Below are positions 8,801 through 18,036 of a DNA stretch of 55,286 nt, piece by piece. The position numbers and the translations under genes were made by a program. The DNA is taken from positions 1 through 55,286 of IMG/VR virus record IMGVR_UViG_3300028805_000144, one strand, 5' to 3'. The notes beneath the pieces were generated by a model. That model saw nothing but the letters and a program-made list of their open reading frames with translations, was not told the origin of the DNA and made no database searches. The stretch comes from a virus. The first letter of the stretch is position 1, and the number at the start of each line of letters is the position of its first letter.

Positions 8801-8915
8801 CCCTTAATAGTGTAATGGTAACACGCCGTATAAGTGACCTTAGCTATATGGTTTGTCAGCAAAATTTTCTTTGCATTCAGAGCCGGGATTAGAGGTTCGA
8901 GTCCTCTTTAAGGGT
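8801..8915 (+). tRNA. tRNA-like gene (115 nt) with a ~40-nt unresolved insertion between the D-arm and T-arm; anticodon undetermined
   Basis: acceptor CCCTTAA/TTAAGGG perfect; D-arm GTGT-AATGGTA-ACAC; T-arm AGAGG-TTCGAGT-CCTCT; no canonical 5-bp anticodon stem. Confidence 0.4.
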
Positions 8916-8952
8916 TTATTATTTTAATTTATTAATCAAAAGGAGAAAACAA

Positions 8953-9162
8953 ATGGACAGAATTCTTGATGCAATCGACATTATCACTACTGAAATGGAT
9001 TATATTTATGAAGCCATTAAGAAGATTGATAATTCAGTTCCTGCAAAGGCACAGGCAATAGCGGAAGTTGTTAAGGAAAGAGAAAAGACCAACCGCAAGC
9101 TAATTGCTTTTTATGAGCAGGTTCTTGATCTTGACGGTTGGGAAGATGAAGATTTTGATTAA
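8953..9162 (+). CDS. hypothetical acidic protein
   Basis: RBS AAAGGAGAAA; ORF track. Confidence 0.55.
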   Translation: MDRILDAIDIITTEMDYIYEAIKKIDNSVPAKAQAIAEVVKEREKTNRKLIAFYEQVLDLDGWEDEDFD

Positions 9163-9697
9163 TAATTAATTTATTAATAAAAAAAATGAATATAGATGTT
9201 GCGAAAAATAGCTGAAAAAAAGTGATGTGCGGACACTCCTGCTATTTGGTGATGGTGTCTATCTATATTTTCTTAATTAAGATTCATCTCATCTATTAAT
9301 CGGTGAAACGATATATCTGGTTAATCGTGCTAATACGTATTAGATAATTAAGAGACGTTATGGCCCTACCGATACGTTAAATCGGGGTAAATGCACTTAA
9401 GTGGGTTTTAATATATGATGGCTTGTACGTAATATGAGACAAATGATTCAAACCTTTGGTTAAAGAGTGCAATTTAATGCTGGTACAAGAGCTAACAAAG
9501 GAGAGATGAATTTAGACCATTTTATTTATTGAAATTTTGTTATGATGAGGCGATATATTCATAGTAAATATGGATGAGGTATGATGATGTCGGTCGCGAG
9601 TAAAAGGACGAACGGTCATCTGTGGCGACGCAGACCAACTAATAGTGTCTAGGCGTTAAGTAGTCATAATTTTATGGAAATGGTAAAATGGTTATTT

Positions 9698-9769
9698 CCG
9701 GGTATGGTCAAGCGGTATGGCTCCGCACTTGGGATGCGGAAACGGCTGGTTCGACTCCAGCTACTCGGA
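9698..9769 (+). tRNA. tRNA-Pro (anticodon UGG)
   Basis: acceptor CCGGGTA/TACTCGG; anticodon stem CCGCA/TGCGG with loop cuUGGga; T-arm GCTGG-TTCGACT-CCAGC. Confidence 0.8.
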
Positions 9770-9775
9770 TTTTTT

Positions 9776-9864
9776 GGGAGCGTACTCAAGTGGCTGAAGA
9801 GTTCTGACTTGAAATCAGATAGGCGGCTAATAACCGTGCGTGGGTTCAAATCCTACCGCTCCCG
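9776..9864 (+). tRNA. tRNA-Ser (anticodon UGA), type II
   Basis: acceptor GGGAGCG/CGCTCCC; 3-bp D-stem; anticodon stem TCTGA/TCAGA with loop cuUGAaa; 20-nt variable arm; T-arm GTGGG-TTCAAAT-CCTAC. Confidence 0.8.
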
Positions 9865-10080
9865 TATGTTATTTTATTTTTATGAAAGTATTAATTATGA
9901 ATATTATTTTTTTAATTATTGCTTATGTTCTCTTATTTTGTGCGCTATTTTTTATAATTTATATCTCGAAACAGATAAATACGTAACTTTATTTCATATT
10001 ATAATTATTATTACATTATTTATTAATGTATTTTCTTTTTCAATGTGGGTATTTAATTTATTTCCATTAAGAGGGGTATA

Positions 10081-10500
10081 ATGATTTTTTTATTTGCTTA
10101 TATTGGTTCAAATATCCTTGCAGGATGCTTATTTTTAAGTTGGTACATTTTTCAAACAAAGAATAGTAAAGAAAATAAACAATTAAGATAGGATAATAAA
10201 AAATTAAAAACTCTTTTGCAAGAAGCTGTTGATAAAAATAATAGACTTAATTGTGAGAAAACAGAATTATTAAAATTAATTAATGAATTACAAAAGTCTA
10301 ACAAAAAGAATATTTCATCAGATTCGTCTACATATGAATCTATTCGAGATAGTCTACAAGCACAAAATGCCAATATTTTAATGAATTTTATGTCACAAAG
10401 CCAAGCAATTAGTGCGGGTATACTTATGGCAATGACTCCATGGTATTTACGAAGTCCTTATCAATCTTTATCAAGTCCGCAATATCCTTATACTTGGTAA
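10081..10500 (+). CDS. membrane-anchored coiled-coil protein (139 aa), one in-frame TAG at 10186
   Basis: RBS AGAGGGG before the ATG; hydrophobic N-terminus; the frame continues through TAG into ORF-track ORF 10216..10500. Confidence 0.45.
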
Positions 10501-10514
10501 TGATAATCTTCCTA

Positions 10515-10543
10515 TTGATTTTTTTAAAAAATTATGATATAAT
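10515..10543 (+). promoter_or_regulatory. consensus promoter (TTGATT-17-TGATATAAT)
   Basis: repeated promoter family. Confidence 0.7.
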
Positions 10544-10584
10544 ATATATACAAAAGATGAAAAAGAAAAAGGAGATTCTTCAAA

Positions 10585-11484
10585 ATGGATCAGATGCTTG
10601 ATATGGTAGATTTCGAGGATGAAATGAGCGAAGAAACGGAAGCCCCGAATATTGAAGCATTTGCCAATAGTTCGATTAAGATGTATCTTAAGGAAGTCGG
10701 AGAATATCCTCTTCTTGATAAAGATGAAGAAGTATTTCTTGCAAAGAAGGCGGCGGCTGGTAATGAAACCGCCAGAGATCGCCTGATTAAACACAATCTT
10801 CGACTCGTTGTATATATTGCTAAGAGATATATGGGTCGTGGAATGGCTCTGATGGATATGATTCAGGAAGGTAATCTTGGTCTTATCAAGGCTGTGGAAA
10901 AATTTGATGTAACAAAGGGTTATAGATTTTCTACTTATGCAACTTTCTGGATCAAGCAGTCTATTTCTAGAGCCATTATGGAGCAGGGCAGAAATATTCG
11001 TATCCCTACTCATATCATTGAAAGAATCAGCAATATTCGCAAGGCAGAAAAAGAGTATCAGCAGAAGTTCAATAGAGATCCTAATGAAAAAGAGCTTGCC
11101 GCAATCCTTAAGCTTGATGTAAAAAAGATCAAAGAAGCATATGAATGGATGAAGGATACTACTTCTCTTGATGTTACTATTGGTGACGATGAAGATGCTA
11201 CTATTGGATCTTTTGTTGAAGATGAATCTGTTGCAGAATCTTTTGAGCAGATTGATAATGAGAATCAGTATAATGTTCTTCATGAAGTTCTTAATACTCT
11301 TTCCAATAGAGAAAAGGATGTTATTCTGAGAAGATTTGGTATCGGTTTTGAAAGGGCGGAAACCCTTGAAGAAATTGGTAAGTCTCTTCATCTGAGCAGA
11401 GAAAGAATTAGACAGATTGAAGCAGATGCAATGCGGAAGCTTAGAAATCCGCGGCGGGCGGCCCTTCTGAGAAATTATATTTAA
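10585..11484 (+). CDS. sigma-70 family RNA polymerase sigma factor (regions 1.2, 2, 3, 4 present)
   Basis: region 2 motifs ([29 protein letters not shown]); region 4 helix-turn-helix ([19 protein letters not shown]). Confidence 0.85.
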
Positions 11485-16788: not shown

Positions 16789-16797
16789 TTTTATATT

Positions 16798-17277
16798 ATG
16801 GAATTATATACAAGTTATTTTTATCAAATTCGTAATTTTAAACCAAATATGGTTCCTATCTCTACTGCGCGGTGGGACCCATCTTGGTACCATGATTGGA
16901 TGGGTCCCGATTATGTCTTTAAAGACAAACGTGGAGTATATAATGGAATTAGAGCAGAATGTTTTCATTATGATGATCAAGAGTATGAATGTGAATGCGG
17001 CGATCGGTGCTTACTAGATCCTAAAGATCCGTCTAAATGCTCGTTTTTACGGCAACTCCGCATTCAATATGATAAGCTAAATTTTGAAGAAATTATGCAA
17101 AGATGTGTAAGACTTGGCTCTTATATAAAAGATCTTGAGAGAATGGAAGAGCTGCCCATTTTGGTATTCATTTTTTATGAAACTCCAAAGAATCTTTGTT
17201 CAGAAAGAGGAGTTCTTCAAAGTTGGTTTAAAGATCATGGATATGATTTAAAAGAGTTAGAATATCCAATTAAGTAA
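16798..17277 (+). CDS. hypothetical protein
   Basis: ORF track; no obvious RBS. Confidence 0.45.
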   Translation: MELYTSYFYQIRNFKPNMVPISTARWDPSWYHDWMGPDYVFKDKRGVYNGIRAECFHYDDQEYECECGDRCLLDPKDPSKCSFLRQLRIQYDKLNFEEIMQRCVRLGSYIKDLERMEELPILVFIFYETPKNLCSERGVLQSWFKDHGYDLKELEYPIK

Positions 17278-17285
17278 AATTTCTA

Positions 17286-17314
17286 TTGATTTTTCTAAAA
17301 AATTATGATATAAT
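17286..17314 (+). promoter_or_regulatory. consensus promoter (TTGATT-17-TGATATAAT), tRNA-cluster subclass
   Basis: repeated promoter family. Confidence 0.7.
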
Positions 17315-17403
17315 ATATATGTAAGATAAAGAAGGGGCAGACAGCAAATCAATTAAAAATTCTGATAGTTTTGATCTGAACACTTTTAATGCCCCTTGAA
17401 TTT

Positions 17404-17543
17404 GCGGTTGTAACTCAGATGGTAGAGTAGCTGACTTTGGTTGTTTAGTTTAACAGTAAAATATCGGATGCGAAGATATAAGTGCAACTCTTATAACAAC
17501 TACCATAATCAGCAAGTCGCGAGTTCGAACCTCGCCAACCGCA
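17404..17543 (+). tRNA. tRNA (predicted Lys, anticodon UUU) with a 67-nt tRNA-like insert (17439..17505, ending ...A-CCA) in the anticodon loop
   Basis: acceptor GCGGTTG/CAACCGC; D-arm ACTC-AGATGGTA-GAGT; anticodon stem GCTGA...TCAGC; T-arm GCGAG-TTCGAAC-CTCGC; removing 17439-17505 leaves the loop CTTT+TAA = cuUUUaa. Confidence 0.6.
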
Positions 17544-17593
17544 TCGTCATGGTATCTCCCTCCCACTTATGCGTTTGCGGGTTCGCATTGAAA

Positions 17594-17664
17594 ACCCGTA
17601 TTTAGCGGGTTCGTTCATCGGTAGGACGGGGGCCTTTGAAGCCCACAAGACTGGTCCAACTCCA
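17594..17664 (+). tRNA. tRNA-Gln (anticodon UUG)
   Basis: acceptor AGCGGGT/ACCCGCT; D-arm GTTC-ATCGGTA-GGAC; loop cuUUGaa; T-arm ACTGG-TCCAACT-CCAGT. Confidence 0.65.
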
Positions 17665-17672
17665 GTACCCGC

Positions 17673-17794
17673 TGTTTTATGGGGGCTTGTAGCTCAGTTG
17701 GAAGAGCGACGTACATATATGCTTTTAGAAATTAAAAGCTTACAGCAATTTAATTAAAATGCATTTGGAGCCGTGTGTCATAGGTTCGAGTCCT
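17673..17794 (+). tRNA. tRNA gene with a ~50-nt unresolved insertion in the anticodon region; anticodon undetermined
   Basis: acceptor GGGCTTG/CAAGCCC perfect; D-arm GCTC-AGTTGGAA-GAGC; T-arm ATAGG-TTCGAGT-CCTAT; only a 3-bp ACG/CGT anticodon stem is visible; the insert contains an ACAGCAATTTAATT motif. Confidence 0.4.
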
Positions 17795-17922
17795 ATCAAG
17801 CCCCTTAGACAAACGACACAATGTCTATAAACAAGAGTGCTCGTAGTTGTGAAACGTTAGAATCACACGGCAATAAGGGTTGTCGTTAGAGGTGACGGCC
17901 GAGCCTTCCCTTATGAGGTGTT

Positions 17923-18036
17923 AATGCAATGGCGGAATAGGTAGACGCAAGTTCTAAGCAGGTAGGCTCTAAGCAAGCCTGGCTGTGGGTTTTTTCTACT
18001 GGCCCATATATGAGGTGCAAATCCTCATTTGCATTA
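17923..18036 (+). tRNA. type-II-like tRNA-like element (Leu-type D-arm) with extra nucleotides around an AGGCT-CTAAGCA-AGCCT stem-loop; possibly a pseudo-tRNA or Y-RNA-like
   Basis: acceptor AATGCAA/TTGCATT perfect; D-arm TG-GCG-GAATAGGTAGA-CGC; 6-bp T-stem ATGAGG-TGCAAAT-CCTCAT; tandem CTAAGCA duplication. Confidence 0.35.

Follow-up and report, generated by a model that had tools for sequence, protein, structure and literature searches.

Four tRNA-like loci in two unrelated pairs

The window analysed here, a stretch of 55,286 nt, belongs to a phage that is TAG-recoded and carries a large array of tRNA genes. All four tRNA-like loci proposed in a preliminary description (c1 to c4, Table 1) exist, although the third had been placed at 17673-17794, 10 nt away from its true position. 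As had also been noted, the acceptor stems are perfect, with 7 of 7 pairs in each locus, and both c1 and c3 show an apparent 3-bp anticodon stem followed by two loop-proximal mismatches (CCGTA/GCCGG and ACGTA/GCCGT, respectively). ARAGORN, run with introns allowed at default thresholds, called c1 (105.5) and c3 (109.1) and made no tRNA call on 20 dinucleotide shuffles of the window, while c2 and c4 gave neither an ARAGORN call nor an Rfam match. The Rfam tRNA model matched c3 over its whole extent with 44.5 bits, and c1, c2 and c4 failed it. No terminator-like site was seen within the scanned interval 16300-18500; a tRNA-Cys gene begins 3 nt after c4, in the same promoter-driven cluster.

The four loci had been treated as one class, but instead they fall into two unrelated pairs, c1 with c3 (pair B) and c2 with c4 (pair A). 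An intron of a different class inside the anticodon stem, as initially suggested, fits c1 and c3, where the insert lies between nt 29 and 30, but not c2 and c4, whose family carries an anticodon-like hairpin in only 4 of 114 copies. The suggestion of tRNA mimics suits c2 and c4.

Table 1. Position of the tRNA-like loci, their parts and associated features in the window
Feature	Position	Strand	Description
c1	8801-8915	+	acceptor CCCTTAA/TTAAGGG; D stem GTGT/ACAC; T arm AGAGG-TTCGAGT-CCTCT
c1 5' exon	8801-8828	+	acceptor 5' strand, D arm, nt 26, C27-C28-G29; boundary by family comparison and in-silico splicing
c1 cassette	8829-8872	+	44 nt: UAUAAG..., weak/atypical P1, GU-CAGCAA, P2 hairpin GCAAA/UUUGC
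c1 3' exon	8873-8915	+	G30-C31, loop AUUCAGA (anticodon UCA, G37), GCCGG, variable loop, T arm, acceptor 3' strand, discriminator U
RlaP nucleotidyltransferase	14101-15135	+	Pfam E-value 3.6e-17; candidate end-healing enzyme
cREC cyclic-phosphate-processing domain protein	15209-15553	+	Pfam E-value 2.3e-19; candidate end-healing enzyme
c2	16620-16788	+	acceptor TATGCGG/CCGCATA
c2 5' core	16620-16645	+	acceptor 5' strand, U8G9, Leu-type D arm GTG-GAATAAGTAGA-CAC
c2 variable middle	16646-16762	+	117 nt, no anticodon arm
c2 3' core	16763-16789	+	6-bp T stem GTAAGG/CCTTAC, T loop TGTAAAT, acceptor 3' strand, discriminator T (16789)
Promoter-like site	17286-17314	+	TTGATT-17-TATAAT with TG; heads cluster E5, k2, tRNA-Gln, c3, c4, tRNA-Cys
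c3	17683-17804	+	acceptor GGGCTTG/CAAGCCC
c3 5' exon	17683-17711	+	last bases A27-C28-G29
c3 cassette	17712-17760	+	49 nt: UACAUAUAU linker, P1 GCUUUUAG/UUAAAAGC, UUA-CAGCAA, P2
c3 3' exon	17761-17804	+	G30-C31, loop AUUUGGA (anticodon UUG, G37), GCCGU, variable loop, T arm, acceptor 3' strand, discriminator C
c4	17923-18036	+	acceptor AATGCAA/TTGCATT
c4 5' core	17923-17948	+	acceptor 5' strand, U8G9, D arm GCG-GAATAGGTAGA-CGC
c4 variable middle	17949-18009	+	61 nt: single strand of ~9 nt, then a long hairpin with CUAAGCA at its tip and another, small hairpin
c4 3' core	18010-18036	+	6-bp T stem ATGAGG/CCTCAT, T loop TGCAAAT, acceptor 3' strand, discriminator A
RNA ligase	52394-53638	+	heal-and-seal set
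P-loop kinase	53982-54509	+	heal-and-seal set
Metallophosphoesterase	54511-55044	+	heal-and-seal set

The anticodon-stem cassette of c1 and c3

The insert of c1 and c3 is a cassette of 44-49 nt, and the two genes share the pattern CGUA...CAGCAA...GC-AUNNNGA-GCCG. Specifically, a 5' exon ending in N27-C-G is followed by U/A and an A/U-rich linker, helix P1, 1-5 nt, CAGCAA, hairpin P2 and the anticodon loop, the 3' strand of P2 ending in the exon bases G30-C31. Bases U30 and A31 of the apparent stem are the first of the intron, and the true G30-C31 stand directly before the anticodon loop. Removal of the cassette yields 5-bp stems (CCGGC/GCCGG in c1, ACGGC/GCCGU in c3) with 7-nt loops. When spliced in silico, c1 becomes a 71-nt cloverleaf scoring 121.4 in ARAGORN, compared to 105.5 with the program's own intron model, and c3 a cloverleaf scoring 115.6. 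The predicted junctions read ...ACACGCCG-GCAUUCAGAGCCGG... (c1) and ...GAGCGACG-GCAUUUGGAGCCGU... (c3), and the predicted products are tRNAs with anticodons UCA and UUG, respectively. c1 may be impaired by its weak P1 (4-5 bp) and by an odd G37 beside the UCA anticodon; in addition, an alternative 8-bp helix (CCGUAUA/UAUAUGG) takes in its exon end.

The parsed set comprises 39 distinct gene copies, namely c1, c3 and 37 relatives from large phage contigs: 19 are of the intron type (c1 and c3 included), 14 are permuted and six are unresolved. The conserved cassette nucleotides are NA-CAGCAA and U/A at +1, about 10 conserved positions being visible, and the invariance of GGAGCCG was imposed by the search patterns. 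P1 can form at the same place in all copies, a 100% pairing that is partly by construction because the helix was located through a complementarity search; its sequence differs in almost every lineage, including the leader/trailer pairing in trans. P2 shows no covariation, its support consisting of invariant bases only, and no bulge-helix-bulge motif was found in the cassette. In the permuted genes of related phages the 3' half precedes the 5' half, and the cassette, opened at the P1 loop, forms a leader and a trailer; these units lie directly behind promoter-like sites of the type found in the window, with no 5' half upstream. These 14 circularly permuted copies, in which P1 joins leader and trailer, argue for RNA cutting and rejoining. 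The exons keep the features of decoding tRNAs (standard Pro, Arg, Gln and His anticodon loops, U33 and G37), and the predicted spliced arm CCGGC-UUUGGGA-GCCGG is that of an ordinary, uninterrupted tRNA-Pro (L145).

Considering both pairs together, the sequence comparisons make it probable that c1 and c3 are interrupted tRNA genes that are spliced and that c2 and c4 are non-decoding tRNA mimics. For pair B we infer expression, splicing and circularisation along the following path. A phage or host endonuclease, or the RNA itself, would cut the precursor on either side of the cassette, and the exons would be rejoined; the cuts would leave a nick in the anticodon-stem duplex, which RNA-repair-type enzymes, such as the phage's own ATP-dependent RNA ligase, kinase, phosphoesterase, cREC and RlaP, could heal and seal. 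Permuted precursors would be circularised first, and the acceptor end would then be opened by RNase P and RNase Z. The RlaP, cREC, RNA ligase, kinase and metallophosphoesterase genes of the window may serve in this splicing; large phages often carry RNA-repair genes for unrelated reasons (PMC7824862).

Among the window ORFs scanned, none was an endonuclease candidate for cassette cutting, which would suit a cassette acting as a new small self-cleaving, self-ligating ribozyme, able to excise itself and rejoin the exons, or in need of a ligase only. Its conserved nucleotides, its compact two-helix architecture and its occurrence in introns, permuted genes and closed elements, three topologies in all, also speak for such an RNA. 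However, two scissile sites would be required, one more than the known small ribozymes cut, a search of Rfam gave no ribozyme family at E<=10, and ~10 conserved positions are few; we therefore regard self-splicing as possible but unlikely.

More doubtful is a cassette that is never removed and stays either as an additional arm of the anticodon stem or, in permuted genes after RNase P/Z, within two-piece RNAs, the products being regulatory tRNA-like RNAs or tolerated variants. Pairing of G30-C31 with G39-C40 would make the insert a branch off an otherwise continuous stem, and a permuted gene cut at its acceptor linker would end up as two pieces joined by the acceptor stem and P1. Nevertheless, this branch would sit at base pairs 29-41/30-40, around which the ribosome contacts the anticodon stem, and both the decoding features of the exons and the identity of the spliced arm with that of a normal tRNA-Pro weigh against retention.

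Spliced pair B genes would have partial counterparts elsewhere. Archaeal and eukaryotic tRNA introns at non-canonical positions are spliced by proteins, and circularly permuted tRNA genes are said to have been described by Soma et al. in 2007 and Chan et al. in 2011, in Cyanidioschyzon merolae and Thermofilum pendens. Pair B resembles those systems in having a short intron that can sit in the anticodon stem, one junction structure for intron and permuted genes with the leader pairing to the trailer, and an implied path of cutting, ligation into a circle and opening at the acceptor end. It differs in its occurrence in bacteriophages, in its CAGCAA motif and lack of a bulge-helix-bulge, in the 5-9 nt of A/U-rich single strand after its 5' site and the position of its 3' site inside P2, and in that no EndA-type endonuclease was found. 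'Enigmatic' tRNA introns have been reported in Lak megaphages (Devoto et al. 2019, PMC6784885), likewise TAG-recoded and equipped with large tRNA sets; there, too, tRNAs exceed the length that bacterial models accept, and the inserts have no Rfam match and no known splicing mechanism. The Lak introns, however, lie in the anticodon loop after position 37, measure 79-114 nt and carry a T-arm-like hairpin (PMC6784885), a description that k1 and k2 of the window fit and c1 and c3 do not; none of those in the supplement contains CAGCAA, and permuted genes, present among the pair B relatives, are not reported in that study (PMC6784885). Bacterial group I introns (e.g. in tRNA-Leu UAA) also interrupt bacterial-type tRNA genes, one of them in the window itself (13228-14084), but they are at least ~200 nt long, occupy the loop and are built on a P1-P9 core, in contrast to the short stem inserts of c1 and c3. 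We found no publication describing the families of either pair.

The tRNA-like family of c2 and c4

c2 and c4 match a 26-nt two-block pattern found in at least 119 IMG/VR stretches, and their family (family A) counts at least 114 distinct copies. What the copies have in common is a 7-bp acceptor stem that covaries, the bases U8G9, a D arm of the Leu type, and a T arm with a 6-bp stem and the loop UGCAAAU, the invariance of the D and T loops having been imposed by the search patterns; tRNA-Leu-like elbow nucleotides are kept. Across 116 distinct copies, taken with no pairing filter, 94.8% of pairs are Watson-Crick, 48 G-U stand against 14 A-C, and U8G9 is present in 115. Acceptor positions 1-6 show all four types of Watson-Crick pair, and a compensatory change was seen between two copies (L002 and L044). 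In place of an anticodon arm, the common architecture has a short single strand, followed by a long, hypervariable hairpin that sits where a class-II tRNA has its variable arm and stops 2 nt short of the T stem; no discriminator is conserved. Most copies adjoin terminase genes in small Firmicutes phages. The family is absent from Rfam, and it occurs, unannotated, in the Bacillus phages phi3T and Goe3, two unrelated phages of B. subtilis in which all stems differ and middle-domain sequence blocks are shared.

Judging from these features, c2 and c4 are most likely non-decoding tRNA mimics. RNase P and RNase Z would free them from the transcript of the tRNA array, processing and stability would come from the conserved core, and the variable arm might act as a host-specific effector or decoy surface, an idea drawn from the single phi3T/Goe3 comparison. 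In the non-proteinogenic tRNA-Gly of Staphylococcus epidermidis GUGC replaces GTPsiC, a hallmark of exclusion from ribosomal translation, and the family A T loop likewise reads G-U-G-C; we take this as a lead only, and that tRNA is complete, with an anticodon arm and a defined glycine identity, unlike family A. The tRNA cluster of phage T4 encodes the stable RNAs 'species 1 and 2' (rnaC/rnaD), of unknown function, which resemble family A by description, as cluster-encoded, tRNA-like-ended stable phage RNAs.

Bacterial Y RNAs (YrlA) mimic tRNA and bind Ro60 (Chen et al. 2014, PMC4201824). Like YrlA, c2 and c4 are probably non-decoding, have a tRNA-like D/T elbow and lie near RNA-repair genes and, in this phage lineage, near a gene for a vWA-containing RNA-binding protein. 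They could be Y-RNA-like partners of this neighbouring DUF2828/DUF7788 protein (PHROG 'RNA-binding protein') in an RNA-repair or quality-control particle, although we consider this improbable. The protein matches phrog_850 at 6e-85 and has a MIDAS DxSGS motif; its gene lies 455 nt downstream of c4 on the same strand, and 6 of 14 loci with a homologue have a family A element 0.5-2.7 kb upstream on the same strand. The window further carries genes for Band-7, MVP-shoulder, RlaP and ligase proteins, and the discussion of phage TROVE proteins with a tRNA-like partner (PMC7824862, PMC4201824) counts in favour. Against it, most family A copies have no such protein nearby, the synteny may reflect relatedness only, no Rfam Y-RNA match was obtained, and a profile search against the PDB did not find Ro60. 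Moreover, the 5' and 3' ends of Y RNAs form the Ro-binding stem, their acceptor-like helix being capped, whereas the termini of c2 and c4 form the acceptor stem.

It is very unlikely that c2 and c4 are class-II tRNA genes (Leu, Ser or Tyr) from which a long intron is spliced to give a decoding tRNA. Their Leu-type D arm is identical to that of the phage tRNA-Leu(UAA) 5' exon (13237-13253), and c4 has a hairpin with the loop CUAAGCA, but anticodon-like hairpins are as rare in the family as stated above, the variable region is not bordered by conserved halves of an anticodon arm, G55 is present in the T loop and the T stem is 6 bp long.

Finally, decay of all four loci into pseudogenes, as had also been proposed, or their wreckage by insertions of junk or mobile DNA, is largely refuted: the failure of c1, c2 and c4 with the Rfam tRNA model and the unusual anticodon loop and weak P1 of c1 are outweighed by the conservation of both types across many divergent phages with covarying stems, by the excess of G-U over A-C in family A, by permuted versions with their own promoters, and by a 99.1%-identical strain that shows one difference in the 2.3 kb with c2, c3 and c4 against 27 in the 0.7 kb upstream.

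Sorting of the four tRNA-like loci

The four tRNA-like loci proposed in the preliminary description (c1 to c4, Table) are real, each with an acceptor stem paired at 7/7 positions and recognisable D and T arms; the third exists as claimed, at coordinates shifted by 10, where the Rfam tRNA model places it with 44.5 bits. They do not form one single class, as sequence sorts them into two pairs, representing two families. In c1 and c3, three proximal anticodon-stem pairs are followed by U-C and A-G mismatches, exactly as had been noticed, while c2 and c4 are devoid of an anticodon arm.

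Specifically, ARAGORN found 19 tRNAs between 6.2 and 18.1 kb and, with introns allowed, four additional calls, including c1 and c3, in line with the suggestion that intron-containing tRNAs are present; on 20 dinucleotide shuffles of the window it made 0 tRNA calls of any kind. The Rfam tRNA model recovered c3, treating the insert as an insertion, and gave no match at E<=10 for c1, c2 and c4. RF00005 is defined as a cloverleaf scoring >29 bits whose anticodon arm has a stem of 5 bp and a loop of 7 nt; unspliced c3 exceeds this score with its insert in place. Following removal of the insert in silico, c1 and c3 become perfect ARAGORN cloverleaves; c2 and c4 never do.

Coordinates of the features discussed
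Feature	Position	ARAGORN call, introns allowed	Description
c1	8801-8915	8801-8915	split tRNA gene; cassette 8829-8872
c3	17683-17804	17682-17805	split tRNA gene; cassette 17712-17760
c2	16620-16788		family A element
c4	17923-18036		family A element
k1	7289-7420	7288-7421	tRNA-Lys(CUU), 58-nt anticodon-loop insert
k2	17404-17543	17403-17545	tRNA-Gln(UUG), 67-nt anticodon-loop insert
tRNA-Leu(UAA)	13228-14084		773-nt insert 13263-14035
HNH endonuclease ORF	13429-13929		within the tRNA-Leu(UAA) insert; in-frame TAG
tRNA(CUA)	12385-12459		
Class-II-shaped tRNA	7918-8010		93 nt
Closed elements	6290-6353, 12929-13037, 13046-13132, 13139-13219, 17332-17397, 18362-18421		
Odd ARAGORN calls	12951-13023, 13060-13128		tRNA-Phe, tRNA-Cys
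Promoter repeats	7443-7500, 12161-12215, 17286-17340		
Further promoter pattern matches	2807, 5424, 10515, 15147		
DUF2828/DUF7788 gene	18491-20680		vWA, MIDAS DxSGS; in two ORFs
GIY-YIG/NUMOD3 ORF	18816-19571		homing endonuclease, between the two ORFs
Unmatched ORF	16798-17277		no family match
TAG-containing ORFs	39912-48620, 35446-39801		56 and 29 TAG codons
Band-7/SPFH protein	488-1591		
Major-vault-protein shoulder domain protein	49363-51834		823 aa

A cassette in the anticodon stem and its permuted relatives

In both c1 and c3, the elements follow the order N27-C-G-U-A, a U/A-rich stretch, a hairpin, CAGCAA and GC-A-U-N-N-N-G-A-GCCG-N43. Comparison with related phages, from which the exon boundaries had been expected to emerge, places the insert borders after G29 and before the GC preceding the 7-nt loop. 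This insert, here called the cassette, consists of an A/U-rich linker, a helix (P1), NA-CAGCAA and a second hairpin (P2). Its removal yields the anticodon arm CCGGC-AUUCAGA-GCCGG in c1 (ARAGORN 121.4) and ACGGC-AUUUGGA-GCCGU in c3 (ARAGORN 115.6), with the predicted spliced junctions ACACGCCGGCATTCAGAGCCGG and GAGCGACGGCATTTGGAGCCGT, respectively. We defined the copies carrying the cassette as family B: NCG, an A/U-rich linker, a P1 of at least 6 bp, 1-5 nt, C(A/U)GCAA, a hairpin, and GC followed by a 7-nt loop and the 3' stem strand. Every one of these features is present in c3, and all except P1, of 4-5 bp only, in c1.

Pattern searches of IMG/VR retrieved cassette homologues, all from large phage contigs, whose lengths are about 60-500 kb; the pattern CGTA..CAGCAA..GAGCCG was dropped as too loose, the matches listed being due to chance. 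The 120 matches listed for cellular genome contigs, once filtered, were ordinary tRNAs only, most of them from archaea and having CAGCAA as part of the D loop. Under a stricter parse, we counted 39 distinct copies including c1 and c3, namely 19 intron-type (5' half, cassette, 3' half, the non-permuted form of c1 and c3), 14 circularly permuted and 6 left unassigned. With the cassette removed, the relatives show typical Pro (NGG), Arg (NCG), Gln, His and other loops, and one predicted spliced arm is also found, unchanged, in a normal tRNA-Pro that has no interruption; looking for intronless orthologues returned a generic tRNA-Pro match only.

In many relatives, a promoter-like site, and not the 5' half, lies upstream of the CAGCAA element. 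In the permuted genes, the 3' half is followed by a linker of ~8 nt and then by the matching 5' half, which ends with NCG, an A/U-rich linker and a strand complementary to the leader; half order, acceptor complementarity and leader-trailer pairing are all found in the 14 relatives counted as permuted (for example, loci L269, L273, L275, L301, L302 and L309). A P1 helix fits at one constant position in all copies, as a hairpin in the introns and as a leader-trailer duplex in the permuted genes, and its sequence varies between lineages, its perfect pairing being partly built in because P1 was located by complementarity. The GGAGCCG of family B copies is fixed by the search patterns, and the bases that support P2 are all invariant. 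A pattern-free scan for P1 plus CAGCAA found permuted genes with other stem sequences, such as AUG|...GC-UUGGGGU-GCUAU in L301, and therefore the cassette is not bound to one stem.

Unless its product is in two pieces, a permuted gene yields a tRNA only if the RNA ends are joined; therefore, we infer cutting at both borders and ligation. The precursor would be cut at both cassette borders and the exon ends then ligated, permuted precursors would pass through a circle opened by RNase P and RNase Z, and phage RNA-repair enzymes would heal and seal the nick in the anticodon-stem duplex. The window encodes an ATP-dependent RNA ligase, with a P-loop kinase and a metallophosphoesterase adjoining, and, inside its tRNA array, the 3'-end-repairing nucleotidyltransferase RlaP (PMC12776372) beside a protein with the cREC domain of cyclic-phosphate processing (PMC7824862). 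These enzymes, common in large phages anyway, could act in exon joining.

Autocatalytic cutting by the cassette RNA itself is also conceivable; hammerhead, twister and hairpin ribozyme cores are absent, and Rfam, at gathering thresholds and at E<=10, returned tRNA matches only, with no ribozyme, Y RNA or group I intron. A pairing of the A-rich linker with P2 was ruled out by eye. Archaeal and algal permuted tRNAs share the same cut, join and open logic, but their defining bulge-helix-bulge (two 3-nt bulges with a 4-bp helix between them, at the exon-intron borders) is absent in family B. Specifically, folding and inspection of 18 precursors showed none, the 5' border being followed by 5-9 nt of single strand and then by P1, and the 3' border falling within P2. 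No EndA/Sen-type endonuclease domain was found in 38 window ORFs compared with Pfam, 18 of them also with NCBIfam or PHROGs. The 'enigmatic introns' of Lak megaphage tRNAs (Devoto et al. 2019, PMC6784885) interrupt the anticodon loop with 79-114 nt, hold an internal T-arm-like hairpin and have no Rfam match (PMC6784885 supplement), whereas the inserts of c1 and c3 sit in the stem, measure 44-49 nt and have no T-loop hairpin. A group I intron would be about 200 nt or longer, possess a conserved catalytic core and interrupt the anticodon loop; this class is rejected, the inserts being of 44 and 49 nt, lying in the stem between nucleotides 29 and 30 and giving no RF00028 match.

To our knowledge, the tRNA introns described in bacteria all belong to group I, and permuted tRNA genes have been described in a few algae and archaea alone; a literature search, which was not exhaustive, found nothing on permuted or split tRNA genes in phages. 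The family to which c1 and c3 belong represents an apparently new form of tRNA interruption and gene permutation in bacteriophages.

Family A, tRNA-like elements devoid of an anticodon arm

The relatives of c2 and c4 were defined here as family A by a 7-bp acceptor, U8G9, a GNG-GAAUARGUAGA-CNC D arm, no anticodon arm, and a long hairpin that stops about 2 nt short of the T stem, which has 6 bp and the T loop UG(C/U)AAAU. Both c2 and c4 show every feature, reading N7-UG-GNG-GAAUARGUAGA-CNC on the 5' side and CAU/UAU-(6-bp stem)-UG(C/U)AAAU-(stem)-N7 on the 3' side. This two-block pattern matched at least 119 IMG/VR stretches. Among 116 distinct copies taken without a pairing filter, Watson-Crick pairs make up 94.8% over the 16 pairs of the stems, U8G9 occurs in 115, and G-U exceeds A-C by 48 to 14, an excess which argues for an RNA structure on this strand. 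All four Watson-Crick pair types are seen at every one of acceptor positions 1-6, and covariation, in a pairing-filtered subset, is 0.69 vs 0.19 in shuffles. The D-loop and T-loop sequences are fixed by the search; Bacillus phage Goe3 nonetheless has a GGAAAAGG variant.

The middle of the element spans 37-117 nt and contains an anticodon-like hairpin in only 4/114 copies. Its usual fold consists of ~11 unpaired nt and a long irregular hairpin, which ends 2 nt before the T stem and occupies the site where a class-II tRNA has its variable arm; loci L002 and L044 are distinguished by a compensatory change at the hairpin base. The discriminator varies (A 60, U 41, G 7, C 6), the first base pairs are variable and no CCA is encoded. 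An aminoacylatable tRNA-Leu-like carrier is, judging from the variable discriminator (the A73 of LeuRS recognition is not conserved) and the missing CCA, apparently ruled out.

The element is present, unannotated, in Bacillus phages phi3T, KLEB27-1 and Goe3, and partial matches suggest its presence in SBSphiJ-like phages and in phages of Enterococcus and Lactobacillus too. Its typical site in temperate phages of the Firmicutes type is immediately ahead of the terminase genes, on their strand and downstream of an ArpU-like regulator; in Goe3, L062, L005 and the window it belongs to tRNA arrays. By comparing phi3T and Goe3, which are of different phage families and have B. subtilis as common host, we found that the acceptor, D and T stems differ and long middle-domain blocks are shared, which points to a sequence-level, host-related function of the arm. 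In the window, c4 lies 3 nt from tRNA-Cys, within a cluster driven by a promoter-like site at 17286. We infer that c2 and c4 are probably non-decoding tRNA mimics matured like tRNAs; candidate roles would be decoy, scaffolded effector RNA or RNP partner.

In the window lineage, the element is often upstream of the gene for a DUF2828/DUF7788 vWA protein (PHROG 'RNA-binding protein'), and most family A members are without this neighbour. A bacterial Y RNA (YrlA) would have ends forming a Ro-binding stem, a match to an Rfam model and an adjacent Ro60 (TROVE) gene. The ends of family A form an acceptor stem instead, no Rfam family matches the element in the window or in nine other loci, and searches did not confirm a Ro60/TROVE identity of the vWA protein; a Y RNA identity is unlikely. 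The homing-endonuclease ORF inside the DUF2828 gene suggests an intron or other mobile insertion.

The same non-exhaustive literature search found nothing on family A or on tRNA-like RNAs without an anticodon, Devoto 2019 alone being relevant. The pair formed by c2 and c4 belongs to an apparently new, widespread family of probable tRNA mimics, abundant and unannotated. Since it occurs in tractable phages of Bacillus subtilis (phi3T, Goe3 and, by partial matches, SBSphiJ), it is genetically testable straight away.

As a tentative proposal, which we consider possible but short of probable, the P1-CAGCAA cassette would represent a third, undescribed way of tRNA splicing and circular joining in viruses of bacteria (being either a small ribozyme of a new kind or a substrate for an endonuclease acting together with phage RNA-repair ligases), explaining the first permuted tRNA genes outside archaea and eukaryotes, and family A a new, very widespread phage tRNA-mimic class with a host-specific effector arm. 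If true, a conserved cassette of 45 nt that splits tRNAs within the anticodon stem and builds permuted genes in phages would be a new RNA-processing pathway of the bacterial world, phage 'RNA repair' ligases would possibly acquire a physiological role, and tRNA counts in large and recoded phages would be systematically underestimated.

Other interrupted elements and genomic setting

The description of the Lak-type introns fits k1 and k2, two window tRNAs whose inserts have in common a T-loop-like hairpin, UAUAAG-UKCAAMU-CUUAUA, with a short closing helix, and resemble an acceptor/T-arm minihelix. Conceivably, RNase P and RNase Z could cut these inserts out, with ligation as the next step. The tRNA-Leu(UAA) is split between U34 and A35; as in group I introns, the 5' exon ends with U and the intron with G, and the Rfam group I model gave no match on this insert.

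Six 'closed' elements consist of a 7-10-bp helix around NA-CAGCAA and 40-90 nt, with no tRNA halves, the helix search having a high chance background (~15% of control hexamers). Two of them enclose the odd ARAGORN calls, and similar elements with a T-arm-like hairpin beside the 3' strand occur in the relatives L290, L293, L296, L297, L301, L304 and L305. The machinery that would cut and join family B precursors may act on these elements as well, possibly giving small circular RNAs.

The window behaves as a phage genome segment in which TAG is read as sense: when TAG is counted as coding, the longest ORFs grow from 838 aa to 2,904 and 1,459 codons, late genes being TAG-rich and early genes TAG-free. 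Spliced c1 has the predicted anticodon UCA, which reads UGA, with G37 (8873-8915), in a loop that looks like one of Arg(UCG) type carrying A in place of G36; TGA recoding lengthened no ORF in the window. If spliced, c1 would be a UGA-reading tRNA added to a TAG-recoded phage. The class-II-shaped tRNA has a long variable arm, and its D arm is of the Leu/Tyr type; ARAGORN calls it His(GUG), Rfam gives it only 36.9 bits, and its identity is doubtful.

Megablast and blastn of the region found no relatives among GenBank phages; contigs 99-100% identical are present in a JGI metagenome, an ENA assembly and a Logan run. Compared with window 15579-18628, the strain in L440 (99.1% identical) has 27 differences within 15.7-16.3 kb and 1, in tRNA-Cys, across the 2.3 kb holding c2, k2, c3 and c4; in the strain variants L439-L441, c2, c3 and c4 are free of informative substitutions.

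A promoter, TTGATTTTT...TGATATAAT, is repeated in the window and is followed, at the three sites read (7443, 12161 and 17286), by a conserved initial transcribed sequence, ATATATGTAAGATAAAGAA; permuted tRNA genes in related contigs are preceded by this arrangement too. The Band-7/SPFH and vault-shoulder proteins, together with RlaP, cREC, ligase, kinase and phosphoesterase, are an unusually rich RNA-repair or vault-like set. The unmatched ORF starts 10 nt past the 3' end of c2, with no obvious Shine-Dalgarno; a related-locus search of IMG/VR with it gave none, and homologues of it are found in the permuted-tRNA loci L285 and L290.
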